A stretch of DNA of 63,786 nt, counting the filler, from Reticulomyxa filosa (taxonomy: Eukaryota; Protista; Foraminifera): NCBI GenBank assembly GCA_000512085.1. It is 17 parts of 17 records of this genome, joined end to end, with 100 filler letters (N's around TTAATTAATTAA, not from the genome) between each part and the next. Parts side by side here need not be neighbours in the genome. Positions count along the whole stretch, not along the records: positions 35,790 to 40,269 come from ASPP01006701.1; 16 more parts are not named here. One strand, written 5' to 3'. The notes under the pieces are model-generated. The model made no database searches. It had not been told where the DNA came from and saw only the letters and a program-made list of their open reading frames with translations. Position 1 is the stretch's first letter, and each line of letters opens with the position of its first letter. The translations under genes were made by a program, and so were the position numbers. Below are positions 14,543-53,051 of this stretch, in pieces.

Positions 14543-14717
14543 NNNNNNNNNNNNNNNNNNNNNNNNNNNNNNNNNNNNNNNNNNNNTTAATTAATTAANN
14601 NNNNNNNNNNNNNNNNNNNNNNNNNNNNNNNNNNNNNNNNNNATGTAGACGAAATTGTATCAAATTATGTTAGTTTTATTTTTTTTTTGTGTATTTATAT
14701 AATAGTTTGTTGTTTTA

Positions 14718-15793
14718 AAAAGACAGCAATAATATTTATGTTTGAAACGCTTCGTTCATACTCTAAATTACTCAAAACGTTCACTGGACATACAAATTGT
14801 GTGAACGCTATTGATTATTTTGAATTTGGTGATTGCAAATTAATTTGTTCTGGATCAGATGATAAAATAGTTCGTGTATGGAATATTGAAAATAACAAAC
14901 AAATTCAATTATTTGATGACATTAAAATTCGGTGCATTGCGTGAAATTTTCACCTTATCATTATCATAAAAATAATCTTAATGTAATTTGTTCATCATCA
15001 ACTGATAATACATTAATTTTTTGGGATTTCAAAGAAAACAGACAATTACAAGTATTCAAAGAACAATGTGTTCCTGTACGTAGGATGGAATTTTCAACAT
15101 TTAATTGTGATCGATATTTATGTTCTGTATCTTTGGACAAAACAATTCGTTTATTGGATGCTGAAGCGTTTAAAATATTGCATATTTTCAATGGACACGA
15201 AGGTGGTGTACGTAGTATTGATATTTCACCATTGCATATCAATTATAAAAACAAGAATAAAAATAATAGTGTTGGTGTAATTGGTGGTAATGGATATAAA
15301 ATTTTTTCTGGATCTGATGATAAAACAATTCGTATATGGTATATTGAAACAACAAAACAATTAAATGTATTCAAAGGACATGATAGTTCAGTTATAAGTG
15401 TAAAATATGGATCAAATGAATCAATAATTAGTGGTGGTAAAAATACAATATTATCTGGCTCATGGGATAAGCGTCCGTTTATGGGATACTAGATCTGGTC
15501 CTCAAATTCAAGTATTCAATGGACATATAACTCATTTAAATGTTGTAGATTATGCACCATTTGTAATTGATAATATTGAAATTAATAATATTTCAAGTGT
15601 GATATGTTCTGGATCATGGGATAACACAATTCGATTTTGGGACATTCGATCAAATAAAAAAGAATTATATGTGATGAAAGAAAGTGATCATAATGGAATA
15701 TTATATCTTAAATTTATAACAATTAGAAATAATGATTGTTTTGTTCATTTATGTTACGGCTCATGTAAAGGTCTAATTCGTGTTTGGGGATAA
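14718..15793 (+). pseudogene. WD40-repeat gene of an expanded lineage-specific family, frameshifted, 5' truncated
   Basis: FTGHTNCVNAID, ICSGSDDKIVRVWN, FNGHEGGV and SGSWDNTIRFWDIRS are split over three frames, with breaks near 14920 and 15470. Confidence 0.8.
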
Positions 15794-35789: not shown

Positions 35790-35935
35790 GACGTAACTGA
35801 AAGGAATTCAGTAGACTATATTTGGAAAGTGGGTACTCAAAGTGGTTTATCAATGAAAAGTAGTATTTGGAAAGATACAAAATGTGTAACCTCTCAACAA
35901 AAATTGCTTGTGAAGCAACGTGGTGGAATATTTTG
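35790..35935 (+). CDS. 3' tail of a NACHT-WD40 family gene (contig edge)
   Basis: DVTERNSVDYIWKVGTQSGLSMKSSIWKDTK..SQQKLLVKQRGGIF* is homologous to the tail at 52040-52186. Confidence 0.85.
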
Positions 35936-36023
35936 ATGTTTTTTTATATTTATTGTGTGTAAATAAAATTCATTTTTAAGTATTATTGTTAAATACATTT
36001 ACTCTTTCAGCAAAAACTATATT

Positions 36024-36150
36024 AAGTTGCAGAAAAAACTGGCATACATAAATGGTACCTGTATGAGTAGAATCAATTTCCTCCATGAAAAATCAACATT
36101 TAAACCTAATTTTTTAAAATGTCTGCAAATCTTGTAGTTTTTAAATATGA
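36024..36150 (+). repeat. Conserved non-coding dispersed repeat (copy at 43305-43437 in reverse complement)
   Basis: Shared ctccatgaaaaatcaacattta.acctaattttt...aaaat.tct.caaatctt.tagtttttaaatatga. Confidence 0.8.
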
Positions 36151-36609
36151 AATTGATTTTATAATAACTTTTTTTAAGTTGGTTAAACTCAATGTTTTTT
36201 CATATGATTTTTGAAAATTTCATAGTAATGCATATAAATCATGTAATTATTGTTAATAGTCATTTCAACAACTTGGAGGCGTATTTAATGCCCTTCATGT
36301 CGTCGTTCGCTACAATGTCTCAACGTAGACACAATTTTAATATTTCTTTGTTAATTGTTCGGTGTTTCTACAACTGATTTAGTAATTAAGTGAATATTTA
36401 GGTTGTGCTATCTTAAGATATTTCAGTTTATCTTTCTCTCATTGGTTATTGGAATACCTTTTAGCACTAACAAAATGATACAGAAAGTGACTTTCTTTAA
36501 TGCTAGCAACTATTTTTTTTTGTTCATATATTCTGTGTTGCAATTTTATCCAATTTTTATACACATGAACTGTTTGCAAGTGAAAAAAAGACAAACAATT
36601 TTTACTAAT

Positions 36610-39489
36610 TTAATACATTTTTGTTTTTATTAGTGTTTCTTTATCCTTTTTAACAAATGGCAGGCCATTGTTAACAGTATATGATATTGCAAATTTAATT
36701 GTATTTACTCCTTGGTCTTCTTTAAAAAGAAACATACAAAATAAGTTGATATGATGATTGCAACAACGTCTTTCTAAATATTTATTCATTTTCTCTTTGT
36801 ATTTTTGTTCATTGTTATCTTGAAATTTCCATTGTTCAAATTCAAACAATGATTCAATTGTTTTATCAATATCTCCGTGAAAACAACTAAGTGCAACATA
36901 AATAAGATTTAAATCAATGGAATGACTCCATGTTGCACTTATTTGCATAGTTTGTCGAATATACTGATCATATTGTACCCACGTCAATAATATCATCTGT
37001 GTATATTCATCTTCACTCTCTACTTTTGCGTTCCATGCAAATTCTTTTTTATGTATTTTCTCATCTTTAGCAAAATGTATATAAGATCTTGCAAACAAAA
37101 TTTCACGTTCATGTTTGAATGGAGATATCCATGACACATCACAACTAGGAATGTTAAGTGCTCTTCTCATAGAAGGATGAAAATGTAAAATACATCCTTG
37201 ATCACTTCTATACATTTGTGCAACTTCAATATCATCAGAAGTACTTACATGACTTATGAAAAACCCTGATTTTATTTCTTTTTCAATATTCTCAAATCTC
37301 ACATTTTTCAATCCACAATATAACTCCATTTCACTTTCTTCTCTTCTTTCATGTTTATGCAAAATACGTATAGCTTCCCACAAATAAAAATCCAAATAAG
37401 GCCATAAATGATGTCTAAATTGTATTTGATCATAACTGAATTGAACATTACATGATTTACCACAATACATTAAAATTGCACAAATATGAAATAATTGAAG
37501 TGGATATCCCATCTGTTTATGAATATCATCATGATACAATATCTTCAATTCATTTAATATTGTTAATATTTTGTCATTTAATATCAATTCACTATTTTCA
37601 TCTTTTTCATTATAATTTATTTGTTGTTTAATATTGTCATGCCATTGTTTTTCTTCTTTTTTATTTGTGGACTTACGTGTGACCAAGTCATGCAAATAAT
37701 CATTTTTTATCGCTTCATGAAATAATTTCTCCAAGTTATTGCTCCTTATCACCTTTATATTTACTGCATCTTGAATGACTTTGAGTTTGTGTAAATCACA
37801 TTCATACAATAATGGATTGAATTTAGGTTTTTGATTTGATGGGATAAACTCAATATCTAAATCAGCACTCTTTGGTAAATTGTCTCTTTCTATACCAACT
37901 GTGCGTTTATATGGTACCATGAAATATTGTTTTATTTCCCAATATACTTGAATAATTGGATAATGAGGAAGATGTTTGTAAATATCATGTAATAGTACAT
38001 CCGAGTCATTTACTTTTGATGATATTGCTGGTTTACATTTATCAACATCACATTCGAATAATATTAATTCATCTTTTCCGTCTATAAAATGACTTCTTAT
38101 TTGTAATTTATTTTTAAGATATTGTATCCCTTGTTTGAAAGTGATTGAATATGGATTCAATGGCTCTTTGTGTGTTCTATTATCTTTATCTTTCCATATG
38201 ACATGAAAAGAGTTGAATTCCTGTGTGTTTGAAATTGTAAGTGTAACAATTCAACGATTAACAAATAATTGATAATTGATAAAAACATTTTTTCATTAAC
38301 TGATACACAATTTGATAAATCATCTCTATCAATTGTATCCATTGTGCGGAAGTGCCAAGTATGATTAAGAATGAGACAGGCCCATTTGGTACATGTATTA
38401 TTGACATCATTAAAATCATTATACCATTGAATATGAACATTGAATTCCAATGATGATTTGTTTGGATTTCCAACTTGCAATGGTTTTATTTTTAGTTTGT
38501 TTTCATTAAATAGCATTATTGTTCGATGTTGATAATCAAATAAAATACAATAATCTCTCCATTTTCCATTTGACAACATACATACTCTTCTTGTGATATT
38601 ATATCTTGTCTTATATCTAATTAAAATGGGTGGGATTATATCATTATGTCATTTATATCATTTATTTATTAAAATAACAAAAAAAAAAATAAAAAAAATA
38701 TGCAACAAAATACATGGTTTGACTATTAATCACTTTTTGATAACAATTCCATAAATGTGATGCGTGAATCTCATCATATTGATAATACCAATTACCATCA
38801 TTTCCTTTTTTGAATCCAAAGTGTTGTAAATATAATTCCATACCTATGAACATTTGTTCAAAGTTTATATCCAATGAATGACATTTCTGAAATAAATAGT
38901 TGTATAAAACTTGTTTGTGAATTTGACGATATTTGATTTGTTTAGGATATTTCAAAATATTCCACAAAATATGCAAACATATTTCTCGAGATATTTTTAT
39001 TTCATTTTCTTCTTTCAACCTATCATTTTTTTTTTTTTTTTTGTTTTATTTTACACTTATTTTTTTTTATTTTATTTTTTATTCACATTTAACTCATTCA
39101 AGTTGGAAGTTGCACAAATATATTGCAATTTCTCGTATGCATCAACAAAAATTCGATTGCAATTTTTCCATGTTTGTGATATTGTTGTTTTTTCAAATAT
39201 ACCACCAAAACTTTTGAACAAATTCAGTAAATGATGTTGTTGTTGTAAATTTGTGCTGTGTTAAAAATATGAATTGTAATTTGTTAACAAACATGTTAAT
39301 AATGTGTTTTGTCTATTTAAAAAAAAAAAAAAGAGAAAAGAAAAAACTAGAATTTTATTGTTACGTGTTCTCTGTCAGCCAAGTTAAGACAGTCTTAGTC
39401 TCTTCAGCATTTTTATCAAACCATTTCAACACAGCTGAAATGATCTCTTCGCCTATCTTGGGGAATGTTCGTTGAAATTGTGTAAGCAT
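36610..39489 (-). CDS. CUE/PUB/Ubl-like/UBA-like protein with an R-S-E-clade ADP-ribosyltransferase domain (at least 5 exons)
   Basis: Phase-consistent exons 39489-39365, 39255-39094, 39019-38714, 38616-~38301 and ~38221-36610. CUE: FQRTFPKIGEEIISAVLKW. PUB: LHILWNILKYPKQIKYRQI...FGF. ART: LYCG / STS / ISPFKHEREILF. C-terminal IDLNLIYVALSCFHGDIDKTIESL. Further 5' exons are possible. Confidence 0.8.
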
Positions 39490-42400
39490 GACGATGAAAT
39501 GATTATTTATCAACTCTTACAAAGTTTAAAAAGGGATTTTGTTTTGATTACCCGTGTTAATGTTGACGAAGTGTTTTAAGTTTAACTTTTTTAAAAAAGG
39601 TGATGTAACAGAAGAAGCATTTCGGAAATGCAAAGTACACAATAATCTATGTTATATGTTACTTTAAAACAATCTATTGTCCACCTCAAAATAATCTTAC
39701 CAATAGTAACAATATATTCTTAGTTTAAATATTTATACTTAGAATTTGGACTAACCAACTTACCAATGATATTTGTGTTGGCATTTCTTTTTTGTTTTTT
39801 CTTTTGGGATCAAAAACAAAAATAATAAAAAAATACTTAATTAAACTTATTGGATGTTTCCAGCATTTGATATGCATTATTCTCCTTTATTATTTACATG
39901 TACAACATCTAAAAACTTTGGGAAGCTGCGACAAAGCGCAGCTTGAATAAAAACATTGTCGAGGCAGATTCATCTGAAGAATGATGCGTTGGCAGAGTGC
40001 ATTTATCTCAATAGATTACCCAACACAAATACATCCTACTTTTTCCTCCTTTTTGTTCAAAGAAAAAGCCTCGCAGTTAAGTGAGGTTTTTTGATTTTTA
40101 ATTTGTGATATTGTGTTGAAAGATAACACAACCAATTCTCAATCCATGCTTATCTTAATAGTATTAAGCCACACGCACTTCAGTTCCACTTTTTTAAAAT
40201 TAACTAGTTCGAATTTGTATGAACGTTCCAAACCAAAAAAAAAAAAAAACTTCATTTTTTTAAAAACTGNNNNNNNNNNNNNNNNNNNNNNNNNNNNNNN
40301 NNNNNNNNNNNNNTTAATTAATTAANNNNNNNNNNNNNNNNNNNNNNNNNNNNNNNNNNNNNNNNNNNNTGTCTAGTCCTTTCGTGAGTTTGTTATTTTT
40401 GAGACGTTTAATGGCAGGCACTGCAACCAACACAATGCTGTTGTTTTCACAGTACCGTCTAAAGCACTTAAGTTCAGTGAATCTGGGCCCTGCATCATGT
40501 TGTCGAGCAGCGCAAAGCAAAAAAACCTAATATAAGATTTAATATAGCTCCGTTACTCTCGATCCTAGGGGGAGAGTTTCAAAAAATTGTTTCTTTGGCT
40601 TGCGGTCCGTCTGCTTCGTTGACATTTTCATTTATTAATTATGTCAAAAAAAGTAACTGAACACTAGTTTACGCTCCAAATGACACTCTATCTCTAATAT
40701 TTACCACTTTCCAAGTATGTGTGATTACATTGGTAGAAATGTTGTTCAATTTAAGACATATATAACCTTAAGGAATTAATTTTGTTTTTTGACTTGTTTT
40801 ATGTTGATCAAACATTAATTACTTTTTAATGTATTCGTTAGTGATAACATTTGAATTATTACTTAAGTTGTTTGGAGTTTATTGAAAGATAGACTGTTAT
40901 GTTACTTTTTGCACATTTCGCAAGCTTTTCGATTTTCCTTTATGTAAACTTTTTTTACGATAAACATGGCAACACAGTTTTGTAAAAGTGTATTGAATGA
41001 AAAAGTAGAATTGGTAGCAATACTTGAAATTTGCAAAAAAAAAATCCAATTAATGAAAAAGTTTTTGGAGCAAGTTAAACAAATTTGATTTTTAATAACA
41101 ATTATATAAAAGAGGTGTTGAAAGCCATTAAAAAGAAAATTACCCATTGTATGAAGTTGAAAGAAGGAAGGTTAATGTCCAGGAAATCTACCTTCAAAAT
41201 TCCAGACACCAACTACTATATTATTCCTGACAGCAACAATGAAATCAAAAGTGCATTGTGGGTGTAAGAAGGAGGGACAAGTGCGAGTTGCACTTTTGTG
41301 CCAATATTCAACATATCATTTTCAATGTCATTGGAAATCATTCCATAGCCATTGACACAAGAGAAGTATCATTTTATCATTTCCAATAGTGTCGTTCCAC
41401 GTCATCCTTTTCCCCTCCAAATCTTCTTCATGCTGACCATTCGCAGAAGACTGAAGCAAATAATTGGGGACATATTTGCGAATCACCTGAGTAGTGGTCG
41501 GTTCATTTGGCTTTGTTTTCAATGTTTGATTTCCAGCATCCGACAACATTGAGAGCATATTTAACCGAGTCTTCGAATTGGAGTTGACCGATCAAATCAT
41601 GGTAATACTCTTTCGCAATTGCTTTTGCCCACTCGATCGCCCTCTCACTTTCCCGCACTGATCCATACAGCTCAAATCCTTTCTAAATGCAAAGTCTGTC
41701 TGCATTTATTTACCAAAAACTGTAGCATTTCAATCATCTTTGTTTTTCCCGCGGCACCTTCCACTTTGAATGCCTATCGGACTTTCACTCGTTTTGCGCA
41801 AGTCATTCANNNNNNNNNNNNNNNNNNNNNNNNNNNNNNNNNNNNNNNNNNNNTTAATTAATTAANNNNNNNNNNNNNNNNNNNNNNNNNNNNNNNNNNN
41901 NNNNNNNNNATTGTTTTTTGTTCACGAAATTTTTGATTTTTGAACTTTCTTTCGTGATCGACTTAAACTGATACTAATTGGCACTTTTCCAGCTTCAACA
42001 CACTTGGTCCAAGATTCAAAAATCTTGATCAATTGGGTCATCCTTTTCATCGTTCAATTTGTGGTGAAAGACTAACATTGTCCGTTCTTAATTAATGGAA
42101 GAATAGATGATGAATGCTTAATATTGCATTGTCTTTCATGAGCGCGCAAATGCTAATATATTCAGTTATTTTCATAGCAAATTATAATTCTTGAGCAAAT
42201 AATTGAACGTCAGGTTTATCTATTTTTTTGTTTAATGCAAATTTCGATTGAAACTTTTCTAAAAGTGATAGTGTCCAACTACTTGCTTCGCCATTACTAC
42301 TAAATAATATTCGCCATAACCTCTATCCCGAAGTGCAGGCAAAAGTACATGGACCAAAAACATATTACAATCGTCCTCAAACAAATCAAATGTTCAAACG

Positions 42401-44462
42401 GAATGAAAAGTTTCAAATTAAGCGAAATAGTTTAAATTTCATTAAAGTTGTAACAGCGAATTTCGAAAGTTCCGATCCCATCAGGAAATGTTCTATTCTG
42501 CATCATTACAGGCAATCTTTTTAAATGATTGTGTGCTTAAAAAAAAAAATTAGCCAAAACTACGGCGAAAATAAAAGTTCATTAACATGCAAGGGTTGCT
42601 GGACTTATTTTGCAATTTGATTGCTCGTCTTGGATTTCCTCTGAACTCCACAGAGGCGAGTGGGGCAAAGATATAACTGATGCACTTTCTATATCATCAA
42701 ACAATTTTAATTGAAATTGTCGCATTAAAGTTGAAGCTTGAATGTTATTTGTTTGTAAATTCACTTTTGCAAAAAAAATATATCAGGTTACAATATTAAT
42801 CTTTGATATTTGTGGTCGGAAAGTTGTAAGTCTCTGAATTGCATTCAGAGAGAATTACAACTCGTTCGTAATCCATTTTGAGATATTCTTTCATCCAATG
42901 CGTTCAGGATCTTATCTTGGGTCGGTTCCAGATTTATTGAATGTGATACTTTTGCAAAAGACTTGAAAGAATATAAAGAATTGAAGAAACTGGATTGGAA
43001 CATGTTTCCAATGAATAACTGACCACCATTTTGATCATTTATGAGATTCCACAACAAAATGTTGAAGTGTTTTTTCTTTGACCGTTTCTTCGATCGTTGC
43101 TTGTATCGGATTAAAAAAAAAAAAAAAATTTTTAACCCCATTCATCATTAATTTCAACTTAGCTAAAAAAGTTGTTTNNNNNNNNNNNNNNNNNNNNNNN
43201 NNNNNNNNNNNNNNNNNNNNNTTAATTAATTAANNNNNNNNNNNNNNNNNNNNNNNNNNNNNNNNNNNNNNNNNNNNAAAAAAAAAGTTATTAAAAAACC
43301 AATATCATATTTAAAAACTATAAGATTTGTAGATATTTTTAAAAAAAAAAATTAGGTCTAAATGTTGATTTTTCATGGAGAAAATCAATTATCATCATAG
43401 GATATCGTTTTAGGCGTTCAGTTTTCTTTGCAACATACTGTATTTGAAAATAGTTCATAAATTATAACATTAGTTAAAATAATTATTTACTTATCAGTAA
43501 TTAAAAACATTTAAATATGTATACATCCGACGTTATGTATGATTTGATTCATTTATGACTATGCATAACATTTTTTTAAAAAATTGCAAAATTTGAAAAA
43601 ATCAACAAAAGAAATATGTAAAAATTAAACAATTTTAAATAAATAAAAATACTAGTTATTTCATAATTTCAAGCCTGAATTGTTTCGTTTTATTGTTTGT
43701 ATTTGCAGAGAATATATTTGGGGCGAATTGAAAACTTTGTATTTTAAGATACAAAACCGGCATGCCAATTATATCATCACATTGTAAAATGCGATGCAAT
43801 ATGACAATCCTGCAAACAACTTCGCCGACAGATACGAACACACTCCAAACTCCAATGTAACTGCAAATGCCGAATGGCATAGATTTTGTGGTATTTGTGA
43901 CAAGACCTAACTTCGAGACTGGGTTCACAGGAAAAGTGATTATTTTTTGTTCATTTTTTTATTTTTCATTTTTTTTCTTTCAAAATCTTTTTATTAATGA
44001 TGTGATCGAATGTATAAGTTACGTATACACATAAACAAAAAAAAGTAAACTTTTTAATTGTTTGAATCAAATGTCACATTGATCTTTGCTGATATATGTG
44101 GTTTGATTGTTACTGCTATAACACCAACATGTGGAAAGAAATTCTTACAAACATTCCACTACAAACGCAGGTTTACGCTATTGGAAGATTCAAAGACATT
44201 GAGGAGACAATAACAACATTGGTTCGCTCTGGTTATGTACTGTTACGCTTATATAGCTGACCTAAAAAAATTGCAAAAGTATGAATTACTTATGTAAAGT
44301 TTTAAAGATAGTACAAACGTCTATTGGCATTTCAAAATACAACGGACCAGAATGAAAACTTGGCGATGTAAATGACAGCTGTAAGATAACTAACTTTTGA
44401 GCAAGTAAAAAAAAGGTTCTTTTTTTTTAAGTAGTTGTGACTGTTTCGCAACTTCGCCAAAG

Positions 44463-47858: not shown

Positions 47859-50800
47859 TCATTTATTTTATGAACATATTCGAGCATGGAAACCTAATAA
47901 CCCATTAGAAGAAGAATTAAAACAAGCAAGCGATGAAACTTTAACAAAAATTAATGATGTAATTTGTGAATGGATTGATGACAAAGGAATACAAAAAATA
48001 GCAAATCGTTACAAATCACATTTGGATATTGGAATATTGAAATCGCCACAACTGCATAAAAAAAGTGAAATAGAAATGAATAATAATATATCATTAAAAA
48101 TGACAAAATTTATATATGAACAACTATGTAAATTCACTCCTGAGAAAATGAAAGGAAAAGCAATTTATGTAATTTTATATGAATATTATAAAAAATATAT
48201 TATTGGAGATAAAAATCCAGCAAGCTGTGCTGATTTTGCATTATTATTGCAAGAATCAAGGAAGCAAGAAATGGAAGAAGATATTGCCATTGCACAAGCA
48301 CTTGAAACATATATTCCATTACAAGCAAATAATTATCCGCATGTAGGTGGAGATGACAATGAAAAAAATGATACATTTGATTGTCATCAACATGTCATTG
48401 AATTTTTGGAAGAAGAAGCATTAGAAAAAAAGAAAAATGAACAAGAAAAAAAATGAAAGTAATGATAATTCAAGGAAAATCAGGATCAGGAAAAAGTATA
48501 TTCTGTCGTCATTTAGAGGAAACATTATGGAATAATTATAATTCAAATTCAAATTCAAAACAATCTATTCCTGTTTATATTTCTTTTCCAAAAGTTTATA
48601 ATAAAAATAATGAAAAAGATATTATCCTACAATCACTACAAGGTAAACATATCAGCAAAGAAATTATGGATGCAATACGTGAAAAAGTATCATTTGTATT
48701 TATTATGGATGGATTTGATGAAATATTCGATTTTTATCGTAAAAGAGATAATGAACAATATTTTTATGATCGATTTAATTTAAATCAATGGAATGCAAAA
48801 GTAATTGTTACTTGTAGAAGCAAAGTATTAAGTGATGAAGATATTAAAACAATTCTAATTGGTATAAATCAAAATCAAACATTAATGACGTATTTATGGC
48901 CATTTACAAAACAACAAATGCATAATTATATTGAAAAATTTGCAAAAATGCAATCCAAAAATGAGAAAAAAAGTGATTATAACAATGATTGGACACCCAA
49001 AAAATATGAAGAAACATTGAACAATTACTCGAATTTACAAAAAATGGTGGAAGAACCATTTCTTCTTCAGCTTATTTTAACTGTATTGCCATCATTGGTG
49101 AAACAATATGGTGCAGGAAATAAAATCTTAAAAGTACAAGTATATGAAGTATTCAATGAACAATGGATTGATATTCATAGTCAAAATATTATTTCCAAAT
49201 TATCAGAATTACGTATTCAAATGAATATTAATAAAATTAAATCTACGTTTAAACGATATTGCCTTGATTTAGGATTTGATATGTTTTATCAAGGAAATCA
49301 AGTTGCAATTGAATCAGAATTTCAATATCAAAATGATGATGGAATTATTTGGAGTAAATCAGATCCGGAACTGGAAAATGAAAATAAAGATGATATTGTA
49401 GAAGAAAAAATAGGAACAAAAACAATACATGAAATTCGTAATAATTCACAAGATATTTGGGAAAAATATTTCAATGGTGACAGTATTGCAAAATATGTAT
49501 TGAGGAGAGTTGGTGATAATAAATATCAGTTTTTACATAGATCGTGTCAAGAATATTATGCAGCACAAAAAATTATATTAGATATTGTTTCGTGGAAACC
49601 AAATATTGTCACTACTGAAAATCAACAATTCCAACAACAATTTGAAATACATGTTCCAAAATTATTTATCAATTATAAATTGTTAAATGAAGAATTGGGA
49701 ATTATTCAATTTATTGCAGAGAGAATACATGACAATAATCCAATATTTGTAAATTTAAAATCAAGATTATTTCGAATCATTGAGTCATCAAAAAATAATG
49801 AAAATGTTAGTATTGCAGCAGCAAATGCAGTCACTATACTCAATTCAGCTAATATTAATATGAATTATCAAAATTGGAATAATGTAAAAATTCCTTATGC
49901 AATTTTAGATCGTGCATTTCTTGAAGGAACTAAGTTTAAAAATGCAAATTTAGATCATGTGCGTTTTCATCAAGCCTGCTTAAATAAGGTCAATTTTACA
50001 AATGCATCAATGAATAATGTTTACTTTGGAGAATATGCAAACTTGGAAGGACATACAGATTCTGTATCGGGTATTCAATTTTCACCTGATGGAACAAAAA
50101 TAATATCTCATTCATATGATAATACTATTCGAATATGGGATACATTATCACGAAAACAATTATACGTATTAGAAGGACATACAAATACAATATTAGCAGT
50201 ACAATTTTTACTTGATGGTTCTAAAATTATATCATATTCTTATGATGCTATTTGTATATGGGATGTATTATCAGGTGAACAAATTAAATTTTTGAAAGGA
50301 AATAAATTGGTTACAGCAGCTTGTTCACTAGATGGTTCTAAGGTTGCAATATATTCATTTGAAAGAACTATCAAAATATTGAGTGTATCATCTGGGGAAC
50401 AACTTCAATTATCAGAACATTCTGATTATGTATCAACAATGCAATTTTCGCCAGATGCTTCCAAAATTGTGACAGGCTCAGAAGATAAAAATATTCGAAT
50501 ATGGGATGTATTTTCTGGGAAACAAATTTTATTATTAGAAGGACATTCTGCTGGGGTAACTGGAGTGTCATTTATATCAAATGGATCAAAAGTTATATCA
50601 TATTCAGAAGATACAACTCTTCGAATATGGGATATATTATCGGGTCAACAAATTTATGTATTAGAAGGACATACAGGTGGTATATATGGAGTTCAACTGT
50701 CATCAGACGACTCAAAAATATTGTCATACTCAGAGGATTCTACTCTTCGATTATGGGATTTGTTTTCTGGAAAACAAATACAAGTATTTGAAGGACATTC

Positions 50801-52186
50801 TCGTGGTATAATAAAAGCAAGATTTTCATCTGATAGTTTTAGAATTGTATCTGTTTCTTTTGATAATACGATTCGATTATGGGATATCTCGTCAGGAAAA
50901 CAAATTCAAGTATTAGAAGGACATTCAAATCATATAACTGGTGTAGAATTTTTTCCAAAGGAACTTAAAATTTTATCATGTTTAGACAATGGAACTATTC
51001 GAATATGGGATGTAGCTGTAGAAAGAAAAATTCAATTAATAGATGGATATATAGATATCATAACAGGAGTACAATTTTCTCCTGATAATCTTAAAATTGT
51101 GTCATGTTCAACAGATAAAACGATTAGATTATGGGATATACAATTAAGAAGACAGATTCAAGTATTTGAAGGTCATTTAGATTGTATACGTGGAATTCTA
51201 TTTTTACCAGATGGTTCCAAAATTGTATCATATTCAGAAGATAACACAATCCGAATATGGGATGTATTATCAGGAAAACAACTTCAATTATTAGAAGGAC
51301 ATTCACATTTGATAAGTGAAGTACAATTTTCACCAGATGGTTCTAAACTTGTATCAAGTTCATTTGATAAAACTATTCGAATATGGGATATATCCTCAGG
51401 AACACAAAATCAATTATTGATTGGACATATTGAAGGTGTAATTGGAGTTCAATTTTCATCAGATGGATCCAAAATTGTATCATCTTCAACAGATAGAACA
51501 ATTCGATTGTGGGATGTATTATCTGGAAAACAACTTCAAGTATTTCAAGGACATTTTAATTTTGTAATGCAAGTAAAATTTTACCAGATGGATCTAAAAT
51601 TGTATCAGGTTCATGGAATAAGACACTTCAAGTATTGGATATATCATCTGGAAGTCAACTTTTTTTATTAGAAGGACATGAAAAGGATGTAAATAACGTA
51701 CAATTTTCTCCAGATGGTACTCAAATCATAACATGTTCAGATGATAAGACAATTCGATTGTGGAATTCATTGACTGGAAAGCAAATACATACATTTGAAG
51801 GACATGCTAATGAAGTAATAAGAATACAATTTTCATCAGATGGTTCTAAAATTATCTCATATTCAAAAGACAATACAATTCGCATATGGGATGTATCTTC
51901 AAGAAAACAACTTCAAATTTTTGAAGGACATAATGAAAGTATCAGAAATATTCATTTATCGTCCGATGGTTCAAAGTTAGTATCATGCTCGATGGATAAA
52001 ACAATTCGATTATGGGGTTGTGATAATAGCAAAATTGTTGATGTAACAGAGATGAGTCTGGTGAAATGTATTTGGAGATTGGGTATTCAAAGTGGTTTAG
52101 CAATGAAAGACAGTATTTGGAAGGACACGAAGGATTTGGAAGATCAACAGAAATTACTTGTAAAACAACATGGTGGAATATTTTAA
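47859..52186 (+). CDS. NLR-like STAND protein: unknown N-terminal domain, NACHT, pentapeptide repeats, 16 WD40 repeats; 5' truncated
   Basis: GKSGSGKS (Walker A), FVFIMDGFDEI (Walker B), VIVTCR, PFLL, YQFLHRSCQEY, AFLEGTKFKNANLDHVRF pentapeptides, and 16 GH...WD repeats. The two frame breaks lie in homopolymers (A8 at 48446-48453, T4 near 51580). Confidence 0.92.
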
Positions 52187-52346: not shown

Positions 52347-52763
52347 TCATCCACCAACACAAATTAGATCTCTAACTGAACCATAATATAAATTTACATC
52401 ATTTAATTTTTGTTTATTATTCACTTCCTTTTTCAATGATACAAATTTAAGACATATTATTTGATAATCTTTGTCATTTCCATTGATCACATATAATTGA
52501 CTCTTATTTGATCGAATATCCCAAAAACGAATATTATCCAATGATCCAGAACATATCACATTTGAATTACAAATACTATTCTTTATTACAAATGGTATGT
52601 CCATTGAATACTTGAATTTGTTTACCAGATCGAATATCCCACAAACGAACACTTCTATCACATGACCCAGATAATTCATGCCCATTGAATACAATAAATT
52701 GTTTGATTGTTTCAATATCACATATTCGAACGGTTTTATCATTTGATCCAGACCAAATTGTAT
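52347..52763 (-). pseudogene. Truncated, internally deleted WD40 gene of the 14.7-kb-type family
   Basis: YTIWSGSNDKTVRICDIETIKQFIVFNGHE...ICSGSLDNIRFWDIRSNK, with frame breaks. Confidence 0.75.
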
Positions 52764-52765
52764 AT

Positions 52766-53051
52766 TCAGGAAAACAACTTCAAATATTAGAAGGACATAA
52801 CGGAGATATTAATTGTATCTACTTATCACGAGATGGTTCAAAACTAGTATCATGTTCAACAGATAAAACAATGAGATTATGGAGTAGTGATAAAGGTAAA
52901 ATTGTTGATGTAACTGAAACTAGTGTGGTGGATTATATTTGGAAAGTAGGAAATCAAAGTGGTTTATCAATGAAAAAAAGTATTTGGAAAAATACAAAAG
53001 GTTTGGAGGATCAACAAAATGCTTGTAAAACAACGTGGTGGAACACTTTGA
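52766..53051 (+). pseudogene. Second copy of the last WD40 repeat and tail of the NACHT-WD40 family
   Basis: SGKQLQILEGHNGDINCIYLSRDGSKLVSCSTDKTMRLWS...WKVGNQSGLSMKKSIWK, with a frameshift near 53020. Confidence 0.8.

Follow-up and report, generated by a model that had tools for sequence, protein, structure and literature searches.

A predicted cytosolic ADP-ribosyltransferase of Reticulomyxa filosa with PUB and PH domains and a cysteine in place of the signature arginine

The gene RFI_08758 of the foraminiferan Reticulomyxa filosa encodes a predicted protein in which an ADP-ribosyltransferase (ART) domain of the ARTC class follows a series of accessory domains, and in which the signature Arg of that class is replaced by Cys. 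We tentatively favour the reading that the protein is a likely cytosolic mono-ADP-ribosyltransferase (mART) brought to clients that are handled by p97 and ubiquitin. Judged from sequences and predicted structures, it appears to be a real new variant in both architecture and active site. The gene lies in a window of 63,786 nucleotides (nt), a chain of short R. filosa contigs with N spacers (assembly GCA_000512085.1), on a 4,480-base piece at positions 35790-40269 (ASPP01006701.1; ~27% GC).

Gene model and paralogs of RFI_08758

Inspection of the sequence shows that five minus-strand exons joined through four GT..AG introns give 839 codons with zero internal stops, and the single intact protein and four phase-consistent introns of the original prediction thus stand. 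The introns are 78-89% AT; there are stops in all three frames of introns 1-3, and intron 4 has one open frame. Introns 2 and 4 require GT-T donors, and a more conspicuous GTG donor at 39086 was discarded because it is out of phase. The public model of RFI_08758 (632 amino acids [aa]; 100% identity with the last-exon query over 97% of its length) runs into intron 4, begins only within exon 4 and omits three exons, and is corrected by the five-exon model; many paralog models likewise read through at 38221-38300 and 39020-39093. The junction spacing of the predicted gene is the commonest one at each of the four introns among independently annotated paralog models (counts are listed below), these models being gene predictions and not transcripts. 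Most of the remaining paralog models have insertions at the same four junctions in the alignment, as is expected from intron read-through. It is very improbable that the N-terminal exons lie outside the same transcript, or that this copy is silent; the start of the public model within exon 4 would fit either case, but the phase-consistent introns without a stop argue against both, as do the paralog models P0029, P0007 and P0054, which continue through the same junctions. Hydropathy reveals neither a signal peptide nor a membrane-spanning stretch (highest 19-residue value 1.16), in keeping with the cytosolic location that had been predicted. The features, with the evidence for each, are:

39365-39489, minus strand: exon 1, with the start codon and the first of the three-helix CUE-like units, aa 1-41 (sequence, paralog conservation, P0029 model)
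39256-39364, minus strand: intron 1, 109 nt, GT..AG, phase 2 (spacing as in 13 of 18 paralog models)
39094-39255, minus strand: exon 2, second three-helix CUE-like unit (hhalign to unit 1, P0029 model)
39020-39093, minus strand: intron 2, 74 nt, GT-T donor, phase 2 (spacing as in 12 of 25 paralog models)
38714-39019, minus strand: exon 3, predicted PUB domain (Pfam match below cut-off and fold match of the paralog)
38617-38713, minus strand: intron 3, 97 nt, GT..AG, phase 2 (spacing as in 12 of 37 paralog models)
38301-38616, minus strand: exon 4, predicted PH-fold domain (P0029 model)
38221-38300, minus strand: intron 4, 80 nt, GT-T donor, phase 0 (spacing as in 20 of 43 paralog models)
36610-38220, minus strand: exon 5, 537 codons including the stop (identity to RFI_08758, as above)
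37915-38220, minus strand: possible beta-grasp (ubiquitin-like) domain, aa 304-405, internal and without a C-terminal Gly-Gly (strand order in the P0029 model)
36979-37824, minus strand: predicted ARTC-fold domain together with the helices at its N-terminus, aa 436-717 (model and fold search)
37423-37437, minus strand: probable helix-3 segment, with Ser565 and Ile569 (manual register)
37315-37317, minus strand: Cys605 (TGT), first-strand site (profile alignment to ART2.2)
37312-37323, minus strand: LYCG motif (sequence)
37237-37245, minus strand: Ser-Thr-Ser motif, aa 629-631 (sequence and alignment)
37102-37110, minus strand: Glu-x-Glu motif (E-R-E), Glu674 and Glu676 (sequence and alignment)
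36826-36972, minus strand: third CUE/UBA-like three-helix unit, aa 720-768 (hhalign to unit 1)
36613-36825, minus strand: C-terminal helical subdomain, family-specific (helices in the model; no match in distant relatives)

The gene had been treated as a singleton, which it is not. A search with the last exon matched 85 proteins among 4,758 candidates, of which 84, including RFI_08758, are from R. filosa; it therefore has 83 Reticulomyxa paralogs in the protein databases (many of the models are partial), and the family sits within a wider foraminiferan clade. There is no second full copy of the family within the window. Sequence divergence within the Reticulomyxa family is 50-75%, and the ART core is its best-conserved region, with a mean identity of 64% versus 38-55% in nine other regions. 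In RFI_08758, Pfam has no match to exons 1, 4 and 5 and only a marginal unrelated one to exon 2; the paralog P0019 is above the Pfam ART cut-off, and some paralog database entries already carry automatic ART or CUE labels.

The catalytic domain and its first-strand site

The catalytic domain was modelled from 37842-36613 (410 aa, 58-row alignment, mean pLDDT 89). Foldseek with this model places ExoS and ART2.2 on top (E 2.8e-4 for ExoS), and a structural comparison with 48,161 representative chains gives ART2.2 as the best match (Z 14.5, rmsd 3.3, 203 aligned), followed by HopU1 (Z 13.4) and a toxin/immunity ART (Z 12.9). The top 21 matches all have the ART fold, the first row without it having a Z of 6.4, and SidE-family mART domains are in the list at Z 8.5 and 7.5, SidE ranking 16th. 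As both lists are headed by ART-fold proteins, an ARTC fold of the last-exon domain is well supported by the predicted structure, and the toxin-type ART that had been read from the motifs is borne out at the level of the fold. A fold search in a viral library gave general ART matches only. Sequence searches of solved structures yielded nothing with P0226 and, with the family profile, a sulfotransferase as the sole return, which we regard as a chance match.

The LYCG, STS and ExE motifs lie at the positions at which they had been reported. However, the R-STS-ExE signature claimed from them lacks its Arg: Cys605 of LYCG aligns with the Arg of VYRG in ART2.2 (the profile of the relatives reads vYsGL against VYRGT), which the original prediction overlooked even as it quoted the motif. 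RFI_08758 thus has the fold, the strand-2 Ser and the strand-5 Glu-x-Glu of ARTC enzymes and no strand-1 Arg, and reads C-S-ExE where an arginine-specific ARTC has the complete R-S-ExE. The first-strand and helix-3 arginines bind phosphate in ART2.2. When the helix-3 register is set manually (D-F-N-R-A-V-R of ART2.2 against D-L-C-K-S-Q-R of the profile; HMMER shifts it with a gap), the Asn and Arg of ART2.2 would correspond to Ser565 and Ile569 in RFI_08758. Since the first-strand Arg is absent and the helix-3 Asn and Arg are probably also replaced, arginine-specific ART activity cannot be read off the motif.

Relatives were taken from 1.84 billion cluster representatives by a profile search (E<=0.001; figures are for the best 150 of 587 matches) and from a second profile search with the distant set (best 120 of 155 matches, 90 of them new), and all conservation tallies refer to matches picked by profiles that contain the same motifs. 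Among the matches listed, Arg is present in two of the 199 relatives covering the first-strand site, P0090, a Reticulomyxa protein with similar architecture, and P0154. In the Reticulomyxa-type branch the site is Cys in 62, Ser in 6 and Tyr in 4 (n=74); in 51 distant rows (cluster representatives at 50% identity) it is Ser in 32, Thr in 15 and Cys in 3; and in the second search it is Ser in 48, Thr in 25 and Cys in 1 (74 covering the site, among the matches listed). Both glutamates are retained in 51/51 and 68/69 distant rows (119/120 outside the Reticulomyxa branch, among the matches listed), and the Ser of STS in 57/72 rows of the branch and in 50/51 and 70/71 distant relatives. Because the first-strand site is Ser, Thr or Cys in 50/51 and 74/74 distant relatives and both glutamates are kept, the loss of the Arg appears, as far as sequences tell, to be old and clade-wide, and not a decay of the RFI_08758 copy. 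In helix 3, by the same manual register, the Asn is replaced by Cys in 45/51 and 87/89 relatives (it is Cys or Ser throughout), and the Arg is present in 49/51 and 86/88 relatives outside the Reticulomyxa branch. A tree (built from 122 rows by a quick method and rooted at the midpoint, with 65 of 119 branches open) sets the Reticulomyxa branch apart with an SH-aLRT of 99, and is compatible with the Arg of P0090 and P0154 being either ancestral or regained, the placement of these two being weakly supported.

Predicted accessory domains and their distribution

The accessory part was modelled on the paralog P0029 (residues 1-421, mean pLDDT 89), which has 55% identity with RFI_08758 where the two overlap. 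Of the domains listed in the original prediction, ARTC, PUB and PH are recovered in predicted structures, the CUE/UBA-like units are weakly supported, and the ubiquitin-like domain was confirmed by no search. The PUB region of P0029 has the p97-bound PUB domain of PNGase (2hpl_A) as its top match (Z 10.5, rmsd 2.7, 87 aligned, 22% identity), with prob 1.00, TMt 0.69 and E 0.089 in Foldseek. An Asn, a Pro and a Lys-Tyr-Arg are near-invariant among 32-33 paralogs (N116 in 32/33, K125 in 32/32, Y126 in 32/33), and candidate residues for a p97-tail pocket (the Asn, Lys-Tyr-Arg and a Gly-Phe) are present; by the presumed register with PNGase the near-invariant Lys-Tyr pair corresponds to its Lys50 and Tyr51 (PMC5389986). 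A search of solved structures with exon 3 gave two matches, both unrelated. The PH region of P0029 has seven strands and a C-terminal helix, and matches many PH domains at Z 8-10.7 (best: rmsd 2.5, 88 aligned).

Each of the CUE-like units has three helices, those of exons 1 and 2 in the P0029 model and that of aa 720-768 in the catalytic model, and the units are mutually related (hhalign against unit 1 gives a probability of 93% for unit 2 and 77% for unit 3). The motif of CUE domains consists of a Phe-Pro loop and a di-leucine. The third unit matches HBS1-like, SOUBA, SMARCAD1 CUE1, TDP2 and the UBA of Dcn1 at Z 4.6-6.3, which is the range of chance helical matches, and a relationship of the three units to CUE/UBA is weakly supported. 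The segment after the PH domain has the order strand-strand-helix-strand-helix-strand in the confident P0029 model, as in a beta-grasp, and this strand order is what makes a ubiquitin-like domain in RFI_08758 possible. Fold searches returned no ubiquitin-like match, the lists being filled by PH and the domain not having been searched alone; in the Atlas the segment gave unnamed clusters only, with low recognition, and hhalign scored it no higher than controls against the upstream domain of foraminiferan relatives and against two ubiquitin-family domains. No phosphodiesterase domain was assigned in the two models, which cover the 839 aa except for a 30-residue linker.

Twenty relatives were looked up and include six from Reticulomyxa, four from Bolivina argentea, two from Nonionella stella and one on a 945-base contig of a bacterial metagenome-assembled genome (MAG); MMETSP transcriptome entries are also among the relatives. 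A PH domain is paired with the ART domain in 24 of 75 distant members scanned and in 3 of 60 in another scan, and SAM is also found beside it. A ubiquitin-family domain is fused to ART in P0199 and P0276, an RZ-type zinc finger in P0195 and Skp1 in P0262; P0199 additionally has, by eye, an NZF-like Cys motif. There are no PUB, CUE or UBA domains in the distant members scanned, and the full architecture is therefore so far Reticulomyxa-specific. Profiles of the Reticulomyxa CUE-like units, PH, ubiquitin-like and C-terminal regions match 0 of 51 and 0 of 90 distant relatives, the PUB profile gave a single marginal match, and a PUB-PH-ubiquitin-like layout seen by eye in P0154 is unsupported by the family profiles. 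Foraminiferan members outside Reticulomyxa have conserved Cys/His motifs upstream of ART (alignment A4; P0143 positions 161-241), which probably bind zinc, were named by no Pfam family, and are absent from the Reticulomyxa branch. No family relatives were found in viral contigs or in JGI metagenome contigs, and no free ubiquitin sequences were reached through P0276.

A search of 185,579 prokaryote genomes with a single pattern matched one locus in an uncultured Bacteroidota MAG, an intronless open reading frame of >2,300 codons that has Ser at the first-strand site, and an exchange of the ART domain between foraminifera and an endosymbiont is possible. We note that the Bacteroidota locus (L001:4095-11015, plus strand) and P0202 (on a 185-kb ENA contig), which resembles it, are intronless, bacterial-looking reading frames of >2,200 aa with the same arginine-less ART, after which come a P-loop region, pentapeptide-like repeats and WD40 repeats, all but the WD40 parts being read by eye.

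Comparison with known systems and readings of function

The best structural matches of the domain are the vertebrate ecto-ARTCs (ART2.2/ARTC2.2, ARTC1; PF01129), in which the helix-3, first-strand, STS and E-x-E motifs follow one another as in RFI_08758. These are secreted or glycosylphosphatidylinositol-anchored with the domain outside the cytosol, and carry R-S-E-x-E (PMC10789625), whereas RFI_08758 has no signal peptide, five to six predicted accessory domains, and Cys for Arg. ART3 and ART4 share the ARTC fold and a first-strand residue other than Arg, which is Tyr in human ART4; however, human ART4 (Y-S-KxE) is also without the first Glu and the departures of ART3 are greater (PMC2576468), while RFI_08758 keeps the Ser and both glutamates, as is seen across a large clade. 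The fold is also shared with the mART of Legionella SidE/SdeA, which modifies Arg42 of ubiquitin (PMC10951314), and with ExoS, HopU1 and XopAI. RFI_08758 differs from SidE and the other bacterial effectors in being host-encoded with introns, in the lack of a recognisable phosphodiesterase and of the signature Arg, and in that SidE is a weaker match than ART2.2. PUB-domain cofactors of p97 (e.g. PNGase, HOIP and UBXD1) resemble it in joining PUB to ubiquitin-binding-type modules and a catalytic domain, which is how p97 cofactors that process substrates are laid out (PMC5389986), but no ART domain appears in the figure legend that lists PUB proteins in PMC5389986, and by the presumed register the equivalent of Arg55 is not kept. 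The Crinkler-like ADP-ribosyltransferases AACRN and AACRNL are eukaryote-encoded, have an mART behind a ubiquitin-like domain, and are multiplied in free-living genomes; unlike RFI_08758 they are of the diphtheria type (H-Y-Y) and, in the available text of PMC12957317, have no PUB, PH or CUE. The main text of that paper, as far as it is available, names neither foraminifera nor Rhizaria. By this comparison AACRNL appears to be the nearest eukaryotic parallel.

In the reading that we tentatively favour, ADP-ribose would be moved from NAD+ onto proteins that the PUB, PH and CUE-like domains supply at p97 and membranes. The PUB domain would dock on the C-terminal tail of p97/Cdc48, the PH domain would bind a membrane lipid or a protein partner, the CUE-like units would hold ubiquitin chains, and the retained Ser and Glu-x-Glu would activate NAD+ in a pocket whose remodelling is shared by the entire foraminiferan clade. 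Arg would be the likeliest acceptor because of the Glu-x-Glu, which marks protein-arginine ARTs (PMC3102197). An active enzyme with a rebuilt pocket is a simpler explanation than a dead one, since the Arg was lost early and both glutamates were held across deep divergence, and the conservation of the ART core above the other regions of the family proteins argues in the same direction. The link to p97 is backed by the match to p97-bound PNGase and by the near-invariant Lys-Tyr pair, and that to the ubiquitin system by the ubiquitin-family, RZ finger and Skp1 domains that distant relatives carry independently. Defence or conflict, e.g. against endosymbionts or viruses, is a possible role of the 80-odd copies, which are diverging and in some of which the active site has decayed; it is suggested only by copy number and uneven decay.

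Several observations weigh against an active enzyme of this kind. The Arg and Ser of R-S-E keep NAD+ in a reactive conformation while the Glu activates it (PMC10789625), and mammalian ART3 and ART4, with changed motifs, are apparently inactive (PMC2576468). In the Reticulomyxa branch the helix-3 Arg also appears to be lost, to Ile or Met (Ile in 44/65), so that both of the usual phosphate-binding arginines would be missing; 18 of 63 branch rows are without the Ser or a Glu, versus 1 of 51 outside the branch; several non-catalytic columns exceed the glutamates in conservation; and the tallies are inflated by the motif content of the profiles that selected the matches. As for the accessory domains, exon 3 matches Pfam PUB (PF09409) with E 0.00095 and 19.5 bits, under the cut-off of 34.3, and PUB is found at E<=0.05 in 7 of 44 family proteins, none above cut-off; the position of PNGase Arg55 is His, Asn or Ser by the presumed register. 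Pfam CUE is found in 2 of the 44, below cut-off (E=0.002 in P0060), and unit 1 in the paralogs has F9 (19/19), P10 (13/19) and L35 (19/19), the second Leu being absent and half of the di-leucine kept.

A possible alternative, somewhat less probable than the favoured reading, is that the Reticulomyxa branch consists of pseudoenzyme adaptors, which have lost their NAD+ chemistry and in which the ART fold offers a surface for binding or acts as a decoy in a p97/ubiquitin scaffold; other foraminiferan members may stay active. It follows closely behind because of the additional helix-3 loss and the decay in 18 of 63 rows, and it accommodates the replacement of the first-strand Arg and probably of the helix-3 Asn and Arg, the near-invariance of branch-specific non-catalytic columns (Glu165 in 72/72, Ser224 in 68/68 and Met225 in 68/68; model numbering), and the precedent of ART3 and ART4. 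However, Ser and both glutamates are kept in 45 of 63 complete branch rows, RFI_08758 included, despite the divergence of the family, and the ART core is the best-conserved region. A different chemistry, such as that of an NAD+ glycohydrolase, a nucleic-acid or small-molecule transferase, or an enzyme with another nucleotide donor, seems rather improbable. Small hydroxyl or thiol residues in place of the first-strand Arg in all but a few of the 199 relatives, together with the prevalent Cys at the helix-3 Asn position, would suit a phosphate-binding half that was rebuilt beside a catalytic half that was kept; the upstream Cys/His motifs of distant members might be added to these, but they are absent from the branch, Glu-x-Glu marks protein-arginine ARTs (PMC3102197), and the accessory domains are of protein- and membrane-binding types. 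Less probable still is the SidE-like enzyme of the original prediction, which would ADP-ribosylate arginines of ubiquitin itself (or of p97): the fold search did list SidE-family mART domains, three CUE/UBA-like units and PUB flank the catalytic domain and Glu-x-Glu is present, but SidE ranks far under ART2.2, neither the triad Arg nor a phosphodiesterase domain is seen, ubiquitin binding is weakly supported, and nothing was found that points to ubiquitin as the substrate, which leaves the SidE parallel unsupported.

A broader and doubtful picture is that a large, transcribed foraminiferan clade of ARTC-fold enzymes dropped the NAD-binding Arg and kept Glu-x-Glu, with a new mode of donor binding or a new reaction, that the Reticulomyxa branch (>80 copies) is a class of ADP-ribosylating p97 cofactors, and that the domain was exchanged with Bacteroidota. 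A changed R-S-E triad, the textbook signature of the class, is normally read as a dead enzyme, and the ~200 diverged foraminiferan sequences without Arg and with the glutamates are a direct test of the R-S-E rule, for which P0090 and P0154 are natural Arg-bearing comparators of activity. According to a 2010 review, arginine-specific ARTs are seemingly lacking in unicellular eukaryotes (PMC3102197); if the favoured reading is true, an active cytosolic protist family would extend them to these organisms, and ADP-ribosylation would become a further activity of p97 cofactors through the linkage of an ART to PUB and CUE-like modules. The importance is limited in that the family is lineage-restricted and, from its sequences, may be partly pseudoenzymatic. 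Neither the family nor a PUB-ART fusion is described in the literature searched, which agrees with the earlier impression of an undescribed architecture; a mention in the Reticulomyxa genome paper or its supplements, the 2015 Aravind ART review or the Zhang 2016 Crinkler paper is possible. In the available text of PMC4245714 Reticulomyxa is mentioned only for PARPs, and in that of PMC7955679 it is not mentioned.

Elsewhere in the window there are minor matches to the family models. At 43366-43443 (minus strand), near a contig end, 26 residues match the model of family member P0083 (88%); the match may reflect either true membership of the ART family or a portion of the P0083 model that is unrelated to it. 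Coding for WD40 repeats, matched by P0080, is present at 48441-52186 (plus strand; this includes a 1,076-codon open frame), 14690-15667 (plus strand) and 52552-52951. Several Reticulomyxa family models (P0043, P0057, P0087, P0089, P0092 and P0096) extend into Kelch, TPR or WD40 repeats, and represent either true fusions or merged neighbours.

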